Source of the DNA: Amoebophrya sp. A120
Lineage: Eukaryota; Protista; Dinoflagellata
Length of the DNA stretch: 5,749 nt
NCBI GenBank assembly: GCA_905178155.1
Contig: CAJINV010000004.1
Coordinates: 3,875,117 to 3,880,865 of the forward strand
Reading direction: 5' to 3'
Shown: piece after piece, positions 1 through 5,749 of the stretch
Numbering within the stretch: the first letter of the stretch is position 1
How the letters are laid out: every line of letters starts with the position of its first letter
Translations under genes and position numbers: made by a program
The notes under the pieces: generated by a model
The model's database searches: none
What the model was told of the DNA's origin: nothing
The model's input: the letters and a program-made list of their open reading frames with translations, nothing else

Positions 1-2
1 AG

Positions 3-864
3 GACGTGACCATGCGGGAAAAGAAGAAAAAAGCGGTGCTGCGCTGCCACGACCTGCTGCTCCAAAACCAGTTTCACGCCTCGCTGTCGACGCTGATGGG
101 TGTGTATCAAATGCAAAAATGTCTGGGTCTGGAAGAATGCAGCTTGTCATGCTAAATCTGAAGCATGCAAAAATCTGTGTTGCATGATTACCAAAAGTCG
201 CCCAGTTTTGATCAAGTCGGGAGCAGGGAGTTTCTCATGCAGGATAGGCATTAGGGAGATCGCACAGACTCTGTCGTGCTAGGTCCTGCATTCCAGACCT
301 CATGGGTCATCGAAAAGCTGCATGACAAGTCGCGCATTCTTCCTGACCCAGACACTTTTGCATTTGATAGTGTGGAAGTGGGGACCCAGGACACGCCGGC
401 GGTGTACATGAAATTTCTATTGAGAGGAAAAGTCCCCCATCCCCATGTCGAAAAGGCATGCTTTCGAAAATTTGTGTTGCTGATTTGAGACCACAAATCA
501 CGTCTGTCTTGCAAGAAGACAAACGCAGAGGCTTCCGCGCCATTATGGAAGCGATTTGGCATGCTGTTGGGGCTAGAGGGCAGCCGTTTGTAATGCCAAG
601 CACCTAGACCCAAATGTCCCTCCCTAGGCCGCGCATCTGGCTGCGATGCCGTATTGCAAGACAGCGCGCATTTGTGTACACAAGTCCTGCATCACAGATT
701 TCCCATTTGATATGGGGTGGGGGCTTTTTTCATTTTGATAATTTCAGGACGAAACTTTCCACTTTCAGTTCGACCACGACGCCGCACGGGAAAATTTCCG
801 CCGGGCCCTGGCGTTGGTGCTGAACCAAGAGGACGTGGTGTGGGAAAGGACTTTTCAAGTTTGA
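3..864 (+). CDS. 3' part of a split protein-coding gene, join(<3..104,375..417,746..864); hypothetical protein with a PH-fold-like C-terminus
   Basis: Deleting E1 and E2 plus one copy of each 5-bp direct repeat gives one open frame: DVTMREKKKKAVLRCHDLLLQNQFHASLSTLMGV-EVGTQDTPAVYMKF-QDETFHFQFDHDAARENFRRALALVLNQEDVVWERTFQV*, stop TGA 862-864. Third codon positions are mostly G/C. The frame is open from the window edge. The PH-like call rests only on the strand-strand-helix pattern and is inference. Confidence 0.8.
105..369. mobile_element. E1: 265-bp MITE/introner-like TIR element within the gene
   Basis: TIRs 105-152 and 320-369: TATCAAATGCAAAAATGTCTGGGTCTGGAAGAATGC... versus reverse complement TATCAAATGCAAAAGTGTCTGGGTCAGGAAGAATGC.... 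Exact 5-bp direct repeat GTGTG at 100-104 and 370-374. Confidence 0.92.
418..740. mobile_element. E2: 323-bp MITE/introner-like element with degenerate TIRs within the gene
   Basis: Left end TATTGAGAGGAAAAGTCCCCCATCCCCATGTCGAAAAGG versus right-end reverse complement TATCAAAATGAAAAAAGCCCCCACCCCATATCAAATGGG. Further pairing of 468-480 with 689-701. Exact direct repeat ATTTC at 413-417 and 741-745. Removal restores the frame. Confidence 0.85.
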
Positions 865-946
865 GGGTCACGTGGTCCAGCTGTTACGACGAGTAGCTTT
901 TATCATGACAGTATAAAATCAGCACATTGACAATTTAATACGAACG

Positions 947-1303
947 TATCGAAAGTGCAACTACTACCGCTACCGGAATATTCCAATTTTTGAGGGTCGA
1001 AAAAAACAGCTTCTGAGGATCGGAAAAAAGAGCCTCTCAGGGTTGCCGGAATCCTGACGCCAGGCTGCGGATTCGCCCCTGCCGAAAGCCTGACCGCCCT
1101 GCTTCATCATCGTCGTGAATAGCTAGTAAGAACACGCTTCATCTTCAGCTTCGTGTGGTGTTGTACTGCAAGTGCTGGCGCAACATTATAGCTAAGGGTC
1201 TTCGCGATTTGTGAACTAGCTAACCCCTCAGAAAACAGACTAAAAAAAGGCCGAACGTTGGAAGCCAATCCGCCCGGGCCTATCGCTCCCTCTGGCCCCA
1301 CCT
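947..1303 (+). repeat. Left long TIR of E3
   Basis: Aligns to the reverse complement of about 3066-3428, e.g. TCTCAGGGTTGCCGGAATCCyGACGCCAGGCTGCGGAT, TTGTGAACTAGCTAA and GGAAGCCAATCyGCCCGGGmCTATCGCTC. Confidence 0.9.
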
Positions 1304-1973
1304 CAAGGTCGGCGAGGTGCTCGATATCGTCCTCGGGAACAGCTAGCATCTCCTCCAATATCAGCGTGGCCAGTGCTTTCTCGTGGATGGCCCAATCCGC
1401 GAGCTTCGCGTCTCCGAACCGCCGCGCAGTGACGACACTGATCAGCCGGGAGCCTAGTAAGTTTTTACTTTTGCAGCTGTCGAAGAAGATGCTGGGCCGC
1501 CCTCTGGTGTTTGGTGTTGCTCGTCGGGCCTAGTGTCACGGGGCCAGCGGCTTCCTTTTCTGGGGGGATGCGCCGGATTTTCGCCCGACAAAGTCCAGGG
1601 CTGGGGACTCACTCGCAAAGGCTGGAGAGGTGGCGCGTTGGCTGTTAGCTTAGTTCACCTGGTGGCGACTATTATGGCGATCGGGCTCTTGATCGTCGCG
1701 CCGGGGGACGGCCGGCCCACAACCCCGGCCGAAACAATCGCGAGCCCGAACCGACAGAAAAACGAAAGCACAGCGCCAGCATATTTGTGCGGGATTCTGA
1801 TGATATATATACGCATCATCGTCGTCATATTTGTGCACGAATCTGATGAATATACTCGGAAAATAATAAATATATTAATATATTCCGGCCGTCTGACCAG
1901 GCTCGAGTCCGAGCCTCGCCACTTTTCTGGAATTTATTCGCTTTTTGTTGGTTTTTTTGTCGACTTCTGGCCC

Positions 1974-2380
1974 GGTAGTAAAATCGCCAAAATCGCCGAC
2001 ACCATGCGGGCTATCTTTCTACTCCCGACATTTTCAACGAGTGGAAATATTACAGAAATATTAAAAAAGTAATTAACTTAATATATTTATTCCCAAGATA
2101 ATAAATATATTCGCGGGGAATATTTTTTTAATCACGAAAGCCGTCAGCTTTTGCTATGGTTTTGGTCGGTAGTAGAAAGAGAACCACCACGGTGCTGCTG
2201 ATTTTTGCGAATTTGCTACCGATTCAGAAAGTCGACAGAAATACGCCAGAAATCACAACAAGCGCCGGAATATTCGAAAATAATAAAGCTATACCATTTT
2301 TGAATATTTTCCTTCATGGCGCGCGTCGGTAGTAGAAACAGAACCCGCATGGTGTGGACGATTTCGGCGATTTTGCTACC
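1974..2380. repeat. Three copies of a ~56-bp motif in the AT-rich core of E3 (one forward, two inverted)
   Basis: 1974-2029 (GGTAGTAAAATCGCCAAAATCGCCGACACCATGCGGGCTATCTTTCTACTCCCGAC) is the inverted copy of 2165-2220 and 2325-2380. The latter two are direct repeats 160 bp apart. Confidence 0.85.
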
Positions 2381-2437
2381 GAGCCCAAAACCAAAGCCAA
2401 AGCGTGCGACTTTGTTGGTTTTTTTTAAAAAACTGTC

Positions 2438-2470
2438 GCGAGGCTCGTGCACGAGCCTCGCACGAGCCTC
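2438..2470. repeat. Perfect 24-bp palindrome plus an 11-bp tandem duplication
   Basis: GCGAGGCTCGTGCACGAGCCTCGC at 2438-2461. GCACGAGCCTC occurs at 2449-2459 and 2460-2470. A related hairpin AGGCTCG-AGTC-CGAGCCT lies at 1899-1916. Confidence 0.85.
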
Positions 2471-2504
2471 GCGGATATAGTATCTCAATACTTTCGGCAT
2501 ATTT

Positions 2505-2595
2505 CTGGCGAATATAATTCGACCACTTTCGAGCTCGGGCGAGAGCTCTGGCGGATATAATGAATTCGACTACTTTTCGAGTTCGGCCGAGAGCC
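2505..2595 (+). repeat. Imperfect ~45-bp tandem repeat, 2 copies
   Basis: CTGGCGAATATAATTCGACCACTTTCGAGCTCGGGCGAGAGCT (2505-2547) and CTGGCGGATATAATGAATTCGACTACTTTTCGAGTTCGGCCGAGAGCC (2548-2595). Confidence 0.8.
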
Positions 2596-3065
2596 AAAAG
2601 GATATACGTCGCGAAGCGGTTCGCCCACTTTTTGAGCCTCGGCGGGAGCCAAAGCAAACAAGTCACGGCCGAATAGCCGGCCCAAAAGGTCGGCCCGGGA
2701 GCGCCTCTTTGTGGCGACGCGGCCGGCCGATGAAATGAGTGGGGCTGCGTGCCGCAGGGGAGTTGGGTCCCCACCCGGGCCGCCGCGCCATCTGTCTTTC
2801 CTCCTGCTCGTCCTAATCTTCTTGCCCAGGGCCAGAAGACCAGGGCCGCGACGAGCAAAAACTAGTGCTACGGATGGCGCTAGTAGTCAAAAAGCACCGC
2901 TGCCATGCAGCAAGATAGAAGTAAAAGTAAAGCAGTACTGTGCTCCAGCGCCTTCGTCAGCGAAGCTTCTCCAGTTTCCAGCTCGACGGCTTCGCTGTTG
3001 TCGGAAAGCTGGCGCAGCTCGATCTTCCTGATCAGCCGCTTCCTGGCGGCGTCGTACCCTCCGCG

Positions 3066-3428
3066 GAGGTTGGCTGGGACCAGAGCGATAGTCCCGGGCA
3101 GATTGGCTTCCGTCGTTCGACCTTTTTTGCGCTCCTTTTCTGAGGGGTTACTTAGCTAGTTCACAAGTGAAGACTTTAGACCCTAAACCCTAAACCATTT
3201 AGCTATAACGTGCCAGCGCTTGCCGTTCTTCTTGTATATCAAAGGACAACGCACGAAGATGATGATGAAGCAGTGCGGTCTTCAGGCTTTCGGGAGGGTC
3301 GGATCCGCAGCCTGGCGTCGGGATTCCGGCAACCCTGAGAAGCTTTTTTTTTGGATCCTGAGCGGCTGTTTTTTTCGACCCTCAAAAATTTGAATATATC
3401 GGTAGCGGTAGTAGTTGCACTTTCGATA
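3066..3428 (-). repeat. Right long TIR of E3
   Basis: Reverse-complement partner of 947-1303. It differs by indels, including a telomere-type insertion at 3181-3196. Confidence 0.9.
3181..3196 (-). repeat. Short interstitial TTTAGGG-type telomeric repeat (2.3 units)
   Basis: CCCTAAACCCTAAACC, absent from the equivalent position of the left TIR (TATAGCTAAGGGTCTTC). Confidence 0.55.
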
Positions 3429-3621
3429 GAACGCGAACCGATTCACTTTCAAGAGTTTGATTTGATTTCCGTAGCAGAAGCAGCTTTATATATCGTTATC
3501 CGTAGCAATAGGTCGATACATATANGAACGCGAACCGATTCACTTTCAAGAGTTTGATTTGATTTCCGTAGCAGAAGCAGCTTTATATATCGTTATCCGT
3601 AGCAATAGGTCGATACATATA
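3429..3621 (+). other. 96-bp exact duplication around a single N; probable scaffolding artefact
   Basis: 3429-3524 is identical to 3526-3621, separated only by the n at 3525. Confidence 0.8.
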
Positions 3622-4103
3622 GAAGTACTTACTCGAGAAGCAGAGCAGAGGTACTTCCAACGCGAATTATCCCACAATAATTTGTCGTACGCATATGCAG
3701 GGCGAGAAGTATGATTCATGGGCGCCCCACCCTGCTGGTGCCTGCGGTCTCTATCTTCTGCGAATCAGCTGCTACGTGTTCAAGGGATCTGTCGCAGCGT
3801 AATATCGCAGGCTGCAGCAAGGAGCACCTGTCGTACTCTAATGCCTGCTCCGCCACTTTTTCATTGAAATTGTGCAAAAGATCTCTTTGTCAAAAAATCG
3901 TGCTATCACAGCTTTTTCTATCGAAGGTTGCAGTGCTTCGCTGCAGTAGCAGGTGGAGCACCAGTACTAGCTGTAGTGTCACGTGGCCCCGAAGAACCGT
4001 TCAGCCGCTTGGAGATACGAAACTACTCGGAGTCCTCACTGCCACTTGTTACTTTCACGAAACTCCTACATGGAGTCACTTTCAGTAGCATTACCACCAA
4101 TTC

Positions 4104-5413
4104 GTATTCGTACGCAGCTGCGACTGCGAGATCCGGTAGTGGTTTTTGGCCATCCCTTGTCGTCCTATAATCGTTCAAATTTTTCCAGTTTCCAATCGTC
4201 CACTATGTCGTAACCGTAGGCGTTCGCGGTTTCTTCTTTCGTTCACTACACATCTGAGAAGCTGAAATCGTCTTCCGTTACTTACTACAAACATGAAGAC
4301 GTTGATTGCACAAGTTAGGTAGTCATCAAGAACGTTCCATCGTTTTCCAGCATTCGCATTGAAAAAAAAAAAAAATGAATTTCCTACACATCAGGACGCC
4401 CCCCACATGCGTGGCTACGAACAAACTTGGAGTTTATCTTCCGCCACTTTATGTATTTTACACGAGGTCGAGGACCCCTTCGTATAGCCTATTTCGCATT
4501 CATAATTGTTTCATGCGACTAAACAAAACTTGAACGATCGCTATTCTATTTTATCCCTGCTCGACGCACCAGCACTGGTCGTACCGGTAGGCGAAGAACG
4601 TGTGCGTATCTGGACCTGGAGCAAGAAAATGACGACGTTCTTCATGTGCTCACGGTTTACTTGGTTCACCGGTTCCGGTTGTTCCGTGTGGTGGATCGTG
4701 ATCACCGGTTCATTCGTGATCATGATAATCGCGCGCCATCATGGCTTTTCTGATGCTGCGACTGGTACATGATGAGTAGTCCGAAAGTATTCGTGCGCAG
4801 CTACGGGGTGCAACTTAGTTCCGGAGTCTGAATGTCGTGGTTTTCTGGCCGCCCCTTTTCGTCCTCTCGTTCAAATTTTTCGTTCAGTTTCCAATCGTCC
4901 AAAAACGCGAATGTTTCGTAATCGTTCGTGATTTTTCTTCTTCCTTGTTCACTACGTTTCTTAGAAGCTGAAATCTTGTCTGCATTTACTGCGGACGTGA
5001 GTAGATTGATTGCTCACGATGTCAACTAGTTTTTATCAACGTTCCATTTTCTTGTCAGTGACAAGCGCTAGCCTTCGCATTGAAAAAAAAGTTGAATTTT
5101 CTACACATCAGGACGAACCCCCGAGTGGCTACAACTAACTTGGAGTTCAAATTTTACCACTTTGTAGTTTATGTTACACGTTCACGCGGCGGTGTAACCG
5201 TATTTCTATTTTTTTCATCCGGTTAAAGCAAAACTTGAGCAGCTGCTATTCTAAGTAAGTGTTTTATCCCTCTCCGCGTCACTGGTCGTATTAACCGTAG
5301 GCGAAGAACGTAACATCTTGAGCAAAATGACACCCTTCTTCATGTGCTCAACACGGTCTACCAGGTTCACCGGTTGTTTCGTGTGGTGGATCGTGATCAC
5401 CGGTTCATTCGTG
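4104..5413. repeat. Diverged ~690-bp tandem repeat (copy A about 4104-4718, copy B about 4787-5413)
   Basis: Collinear shared blocks GTATTCGTrCGCAGCT, TCGTTCAAATTTTTC, CAGTTTCCAATCGTCCA, AGAAGCTGAAATC, TTCGCATTG(A)n, CTACACATCAGGACG, GTAGGCGAAGAACGT, and 34 identical bp at 4685-4718 and 5380-5413. Confidence 0.9.
4541..5080 (-). pseudogene. Possible decayed minus-strand gene copy in the tandem repeat, product unknown
   Basis: Peptides are conserved between copies (DDWKL(N)EKFER; TNEPVITIHHTxQP...EHMKxxVI), several indels are frame-preserving, and stops lie near 4541 and 5251. The frames are broken by stops and frameshifts, so coding status is uncertain. Confidence 0.35.
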
Positions 5414-5431
5414 TGGCGCGAGGAGGGGACA

Positions 5432-5710
5432 TATCCTGAGTAAAAACGTACCCACACCAGAGTCAGGGTGGGGATTTTGCAACACAACCCTAGGAGTTTG
5501 GTGAGTCATGCATGACAAGTTGCACTATGCAGTGTAGTGCAGGTTAGCAAGTGCAGCCGCATCACAGATTCGTCTGCTCATCCTGTTCACAGCATCACAA
5601 ATTCCAAAACACGATTGGAAATGGCTCTCATGGGGATGCGCATTACAAGTCTTCCTCTCTTTGCAAATCTGCATTACAACTCTGGTGTGGGTACGTTTTT
5701 ACTCAGGATA
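5432..5710. mobile_element. E4: 279-bp MITE/introner-like TIR element
   Basis: Perfect 32-bp TIR TATCCTGAGTAAAAACGTACCCACACCAGAGT at 5432-5463 and 5679-5710. It has the same TATC...GATA ends as E1 and E3 and the same internal motif as E1 and E2. The flanks GGACA and CTCAC do not match. Confidence 0.88.
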
Positions 5711-5749
5711 CTCACGGTCTGCTGGTTATGTCACCAGTTGTTTCGTGTG
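5711..5749. repeat. Partial third copy of the tandem repeat
   Basis: CTCACGGTCTGCTGGTTATGTCACCAGTTGTTTCGTGTG resembles 4649-4690 and 5347-5385. Confidence 0.7.

Follow-up and report, generated by a model that had tools for sequence, protein, structure and literature searches.

How did four elements with similar ends come to fill more than half of a short stretch of the genome of the dinoflagellate Amoebophrya sp. A120, and are they removed from the transcripts that cross them? The stretch, called the window below, is 5,749 nt long (assembly GCA_905178155.1, contig CAJINV010000004.1, forward strand, positions 3,875,117 to 3,880,865), and the elements, named E1 to E4, are bounded by terminal inverted repeats (TIRs). 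Very probably, they are non-autonomous TIR DNA transposons that match the introners published for A120, that were inserted in trans and that are removed from the pre-mRNA. E1, E2 and E4 can be assigned to introner families of the published A120 type, in the case of E4 with a copy that lacks the duplication; E3 acts like an A120-type introner but lacks the AAA motif and is an odd member, whose splicing is only probable. The element type that stood at the head of the initial annotation of this locus has been described in print before; as a finding it is therefore not new.

All four elements have inverted TAT...ATA ends. Perfect 5-bp target site duplications (TSDs), each of a different sequence, border E1, E2 and E3, and the flanks of E4 are unmatched (GGACA on the left, CTCAC on the right) and hold no 5-bp duplication. 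Because of E4, the proposal that one terminal signature with a 5-bp duplication is shared by four elements stands for the inverted ends and fails for the duplication. The elements cover 58.3% of the window and differ 9.4-fold in size, in line with the values first given (about 58% and about 9-fold). N5-TAT...ATA-N5 pairs number 10 in the window, against a mean of 1.58 (maximum 6) in 500 dinucleotide shuffles; with a TIR of at least 12/20, four pairs remain against a shuffle mean of 0.016 (8 of the 500 shuffles had one pair, none had two). The fourth of these, nested inside E3 at 1871-2282, was rejected as an element, being a repeated AT-rich motif. Different elements agree pairwise at 11-20 of their first 30 bases. 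E1, E2 and E4 carry AAA at positions 11-13 and have short internal motifs in common; E3 has neither these motifs nor AAA (positions 11-13 are GCA at both ends), and its two arms can be aligned for about 342 bp (73%; 86% in the outer 168 bp). We infer that E1, E2 and E4 form one lineage and that E3 is a separate family with the end chemistry alone in common. End-to-end RNA hairpins are predicted for E1 (z=-7.35), E2 (z=-5.91) and E4 (z=-6.87), and an Rfam search returned 0 matches. As background, TIR elements with 5-bp TSDs include Transib (CAC ends) and bacterial Tn3 (GGGG ends), and long terminal repeat (LTR) elements end in TG...CA. TSDs of 5 bp also occur in subgroups of hAT, and a literature search on hAT5 returned no paper.

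That no known element class has such ends, as the initial annotation held, is not supported by the literature. According to the description of A120 introners (Farhat 2021, PMC7789003), their inverted repeats consist of TAT, seven variable bases and then at least three As, with direct repeats of 3-5 nt, and 29,850 repeated introns fall into 1954 families; a repeat starting with TAT next to a 5-bp repeat is therefore the published introner signature, and the TAT+7+AAA motif is present at 6/6 ends of E1, E2 and E4. The same account reports that more than 60% of Amoebophrya introns are non-canonical and that U1 small nuclear RNA was not found. Supplementary file 8 of Gozashti 2025 (PMC12130899) lists A120 family 38 as 'Ginger; 5-bp TSD, TA/TA Termini'; that work states that other A120 introners show similar patterns, and describes the open reading frames (ORFs) of family 38 as homologous to Copia/Gypsy, with no homology to known Gingers. 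TA..TA ends are also described for IS3EU/GingerRoot elements (PMC10045372, PMC6839031).

The E1 end matched at least 134 loci (389 kb), all from the assembly prefix JACKZZ01, and all figures for these loci refer to the matches listed. Near full-length relatives were present among the 134 loci for E1 (best 92%), E2 (81%) and E4 (95%), and none for E3. A scan blind to the signature, requiring a TIR of at least 15/20 and an exact non-palindromic 5-bp duplication, with three block shuffles as control, returned 272 distinct 5-bp pairs, 242 of them with TAT..ATA, against 2 pairs in each shuffle, none with TA. Other duplication lengths gave 326 (3 bp), 52 (4), 4 (6), 17 (7), 3 (8) and 0 (9) pairs; among the 3-bp pairs TAT..ATA lies outside the six commonest ends, and 0/4 of the 6-bp pairs are TA-ended. 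Among 492 ends, 487 start with TAT and 335 with TATC, and 433 have AAA at 11-13; since the left end of E2 also reads TATT, the signature is TAT and not TATC, as had been proposed. When a duplication was not demanded of the TAT...ATA pairs, it is perfect in 204 of 288; among the 84 with mismatched flanks, 25 differ at all five positions, and some of these are mispaired ends. Targets are distinct in 185/246 cases, and in the 58/242 elements that could be oriented the bases in the TSDs do not differ from those in the flanks, with no positional preference, which bears out the absence of a target preference noted before. When 244 elements of up to 700 bp from these loci were clustered with the four of the window, 33 clusters resulted, including AAA-less ones; the 244 comprise 88 members of the E1 family, 12 of the E2 family and 17 of the E4 family, these E4-family members having a 5-bp TSD. 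The two largest clusters carry the E1 end that had been selected for, and the remaining clusters were not selected for. A signature far above chance that recurs in many distinct families is thus supported. AAA-less, TAT-ended families with 5-bp TSDs were also seen in loci L001-L134 (clusters of 8 and 6), with TIR starts loosely like those of E3.

Do these elements leave the transcript? E1 and E2 interrupt a small gene, and when each is removed with one duplication an open frame results that ends at the TGA at 862-864. The last exon had one longer homolog, P0001, among 12 candidates, and of 121 removal-length combinations compared with P0001 the combination 5+5 was the best, being gap-free and identical at 63/85 positions; P0001 itself matches PH domains in Atlas at 0.84-0.88, which is a lead only. 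On the + strand, no GT..AG is available in the exact-removal registers of E1, E2 and E3. Four of 12 listed read runs were compared with the window, namely X1, X4, X5 and X10, of which X10 is certain RNA and X4 and X5 are putative RNA. Contigs of X4/X5 join (i) 99 to 370, a 270-nt skip at E1, (ii) 411 to 740, a 328-nt skip at E2, (iii) 941 to 3526, which corresponds to E3, its TSD and a 97-nt gap duplicate, and (iv) 5430 to 5715, a 284-nt skip at E4; they have no depth over E3 or 3841-4224. The exact 96-nt duplicate around a single N at 3429-3621 likely arose as an artefact of an assembly gap and makes the RNA skip at E3 97 nt longer. Given the gap-free homolog match at 5+5, the skips in putative RNA contigs and the lack of a + strand GT-AG register, E1 and E2 are likely removed from RNA as non-canonical introns, with the caveat of a paralog. 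E3 and E4 are probably spliced too: the putative RNA contigs join across both, so that the term intergenic, by which two of the elements had been set apart from the intronic ones, is doubtful and the contrast probably wrong. With E3 starting 82 nt 3' of the stop codon, it is reasonably probable that it forms a 2.5-kb intron in the 3' untranslated region (UTR).

In the listed loci, GT/GC..AG is available in any exact register for 1/58 oriented elements. After frame-restoring removal, 480 nt are open in 66/179 junctions, against 26-31/179 after frame-shifting removal (p ~1e-7); a laxer first junction test was non-discriminating, with 167-173 of 172-178 junctions open at every removal length k. 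In an SNF2 gene of locus L007, k=5 is the best at 2/3 TAT elements, one of the matches being gap-free (60/63) and inside a helicase motif. The SNF2 ORF of the listed loci has 2 proteins at E<=1e-100, one of them from Amoebophrya sp. A25 (55% across the whole query). An E2-like copy also lies in L007, at 3804-4128.

Table 1. Features of the window with their coordinates and the observations on which they rest.
Feature	Position	Strand	Description
Exon of small PH-like protein gene	1-104	+	Open frame, gap-free P0001 match; runs off window start; ends in left TSD GTGTG
E1	105-369	.	265 bp; TSD GTGTG (100-104 / 370-374); 36-bp TIR, 34/40; introner element of a very high-copy family
Short exon between E1 and E2	375-417	+	Open frame, P0001 match; boundaries ambiguous within 5-bp duplications
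E2	418-740	.	323 bp; TSD ATTTC (413-417 / 741-745); degenerate TIR, 26/40; introner element
Last coding exon and start of putative 3' UTR	746-946	+	Stop TGA 862-864; covered by X4/X5 contig
E3	947-3428	.	2482 bp; TSD GAACG (942-946 / 3429-3433); TIR 37/40; long-TIR, low copy
Exact 96-nt duplicate around single N	3429-3524 / 3526-3621	.	Likely assembly-gap artefact; X1 contig starts at 3526
Putative remainder of 3' UTR, transcribed and joined to 941	3526-3814	+	X4/X5 contig pieces; strand inferred from ORF
E4	5432-5710	.	279 bp; perfect TIR 32/32; introner-family; flanks not duplicated in this copy

The elements would have been inserted through a 5-nt staggered cut made by a transposase encoded elsewhere, likely an integrase-like DDE transposase. 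That the enzyme comes from the IS3/IS481/Ginger/LTR-integrase group is slightly favoured, since this group is characterised by 4-6-bp TSDs and by TA..TA or TG..CA ends, and since family 38 carries ORFs of this kind. After transcription, each element would be excised from the pre-mRNA along with one of the two TSD copies: by base pairing of the TIRs the RNA could form a long terminal helix, so that the exon ends come to lie side by side, and this helix would direct a modified spliceosome to cut there, with no need for GT-AG. A bolder form of this scheme, which we regard as unlikely, is that the splicing machinery recognises nothing but an RNA helix closed by TAT...ATA and cuts at a set distance from it, with neither GT-AG nor a duplication required and irrespective of family or length. 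If this were true, any insertion of an integrase-like TA..TA / 5-bp-TSD transposon lineage, the unrelated E3 included, would at once yield a scarless intron. Besides the element itself, the E4 joint takes away 1 nt of the left flank and 4 nt of the right flank. As these flanks differ, the joint would fix the cut register, if it is a real splice; the 5-nt uncertainty by which a duplication usually conceals the point of cutting falls away here. For the strand of this joint, the co-orientation reported for Amoebophrya genes (PMC7789003) favours +.

Several points weigh against this account of insertion in trans followed by removal from RNA. None of the runs listed as holders is recorded as RNA. 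The RNA status of X4/X5 is a guess and concerns a single sample; their contigs may represent an allele or paralog into which some of the elements were never inserted, and one X5 contig continues from the exon into E1. The 52 reads of X10 all lie on repeats and so carry no information. The short side of the E4 joint has only 29 letters, this joint is flagged 'between: not known', and E4 lacks a TSD. The related loci were selected through the E1 end and belong to one assembly, the frame test is blind to 2 versus 5 versus 8 nt, and at 1946-2098 of L007, a poorly aligned region, k=2 scores above k=5 (178 vs 174). A transposase was found neither in the frames of E3 nor in 58 ORFs of the listed loci, and the description of A120 introners likewise reports that no transposase was found and argues against a general mobilisation by transposase (PMC7789003). 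Two further points concern E3: the X1 depth is about 22-37 in its interior and about 45-60 in several flanking contigs, an approximately 2-fold difference, and the X4/X5 contig that skips it differs from the window by 5 letters in 740-941 (three of these are shown, all synonymous).

These last two points are what one would expect if E1, E2 and E4 are ordinary introners and E3 is an unspliced, polymorphic, low-copy insertion with long TIRs, the transcript having come from a copy or allele without E3. Such an explanation, a minority view though a substantial one, also accommodates the lack of AAA and of the internal motifs in E3; moreover, coding does not require the removal of E3, as the element stands after the stop codon. 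X1 covers 30/30 bins of the window and lists none of the four element-skipping joints; in particular, it lists no joint from 941 to 3526, as an empty copy should give, though contigs can drop one. Against an empty copy as well, the X4/X5 contig matches the window letter for letter over 3526-3814, and the skip comprises exactly the element and one TSD, though an empty site would look alike. The X1 contigs tile most of E3 and also run from 4689 to 5402; the summed X1 depth over E1, E2 and E4 is several hundred to more than 10,000 times that of the E3 interior, a ratio that should not be read as a copy number. At 62, 822, 828 and 837 the read contigs differ synonymously from the window, which suggests that the small gene exists in two or more copies or alleles.

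If the elements were inserted by a transposase, is it a single one? E3 has no recognisable coding capacity, and the transposase ORF between TIRs that defines an autonomous transposon is absent from it. Its longest frame has 203 amino acids (aa), a length equalled in 12/300 shuffles, and comparison of its frames with Pfam and PHROGs, by which alone the frames other than a 140-aa one were screened, gave nothing credible; a Gln_deamidase_2 match in Pfam (E 0.0014) was rejected, being below its cut-off. For the 140-aa frame there was no longer homolog and no viral locus, Atlas gave helix-turn-helix-like matches at 0.83, recognition being below threshold, and the AlphaFold pLDDT is 38; two weak representative matches were discarded as long bacterial-type repeat proteins with scores summed from repeats. 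The E3 terminus had 0 matches in viral contigs. Among the 58/159 long locus ORFs searched against Pfam, host genes alone were recognised, and no transposase or integrase. The literature searches brought up no paper seen to name a mobilising transposase or a cut rule, and figures or supplements may describe the E3 family or the register.

A transposase type shared by the elements, as the initial annotation proposed under the name of one lineage, is a fair inference; one enzyme for all four is rather doubtful, given the motifs that E3 lacks and the failure to find a transposase. The further possibility that this single transposase represents an unclassified superfamily is somewhat less probable still. 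It draws on the TAT ends and 5-bp TSD common to 33 clusters, AAA-less ones included, on the combination of TA..TA with 5 bp, which departs from both IS3EU/GingerRoot (6 bp) and Ginger1/2 (TGT ends) as described, and on the reported lack of homology between family 38 and known Gingers (PMC12130899). It is weakened by the agreement of only 11-20 of the first 30 bases, by the absence of shared sub-terminal motifs in E3 and of any enzyme found, and by the fact that the lineage has already been flagged in print as Ginger-like (PMC12130899).

Improbable, and more so than the preceding alternative, is a passage through RNA instead of cut-and-paste DNA transposition, either by reverse splicing or by reverse transcription of hairpin introns that the integrase of an LTR retroelement would then insert. 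The published description of A120, with no transposase, autonomous LTR elements and copy-paste as the favoured mode (PMC7789003), speaks for such a route, as do the 5-bp TSDs that LTR integrases typically give and the Copia/Gypsy-like ORFs of family 38. The long TIRs at exact DNA boundaries and the layout of E3, which is that of a deleted DNA transposon, speak against it; both orientations relative to the coding strand also occur (3 vs 5 of 8 scored, too few for much weight). A chance arrangement or assembly artefact, suggested by the gap duplicate at 3429-3621 and the unmatched flanks of E4, can be dismissed for practical purposes in view of the shuffle controls, the families in other contigs and the X1 contigs that tile most of E3 and 4689 to 5402, and for E1-E3 it is already refuted.

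The window has some further features. Within the AT-rich core of E3 (1850-2620), inverted repeats lie nested (1969-2051 / 2303-2385 / 2165-2229), and the stretch 2437-2473 is nearly palindromic. Two telomere-like CCCTAAA units are present in the right arm (3181-3196) and absent from the left arm, possibly as a repair scar; the telomeres of A120 are reported to carry the motif TTTAGGG (PMC7789003). The long, distinct, low-copy arms of E3 make it a good probe for a full-length, enzyme-coding relative. Between E3 and E4, two units spaced roughly 700 nt apart (4136-4718 and 4834-5413) are 69% alike and partly covered by putative RNA contigs; they hold short frames on both strands, and two frames tested had no Pfam match. 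An X4 contig skips 503 nt at 4587-5089, with GT..AA ends and no TIR, possibly another kind of non-canonical intron or a join between the paralogous units. The sequence to the right of E4 resembles an earlier part of the 700-nt-spaced unit; this suggests that two E4 copies recombined, and such an event would account for the missing TSD of E4.

Among known systems, the non-canonical introns of Fritillaria borealis (reviewed in PMC11282704) are likewise transposon-derived, with TIRs and TSDs, and removed without GT-AG; they differ by their dominant AG-AC/AG-AT borders and by belonging to an animal lineage. Ginger2/TDD elements (PMC2836005) resemble those of the window by the 5-bp TSD of TDD-4 and TDD-5 and by TIRs of 260-297 bp, comparable to the long arms of E3, but have TGTNR termini and AT-rich targets, as opposed to the TAT ends and unbiased, slightly GC-rich targets found here; the 4-5-bp TSD of Ginger1 and Ginger2/TDD is thus present in the window and their TGTNR termini are not. 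IS3EU/GingerRoot elements (PMC10045372, PMC6839031) share the TA..TA termini, the lack of target preference and the GC-rich targets, and GingerRoot TIRs measure 100-150 bp; their TSD is usually of 6 bp, against 5 bp here, and membership rests on the DDE transposase. Within A120, none of E1-E4 has the size of family 38 (about 810 bp) or ORFs homologous to Copia/Gypsy like those described for it (PMC12130899), and a family of unknown type, family 200, with 4 copies of about 2.47 kb (PMC12130899), has the size of E3. In comparison with the A120 introners of PMC7789003, for which introns of 40-1000 bp were analysed, E3 stands apart by its 2.5 kb, its arms of 168-342 bp, the lack of AAA and its place after a stop codon, and this E4 copy by the lack of the direct repeat that 17 members of its family have. 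The likeness to these introners lies in the TAT+7+AAA motif, in direct repeats of up to 5 nt and in the absence of an internal transposase, the published ones being hairpin-forming, non-canonical introns of about 250 bp in many families.

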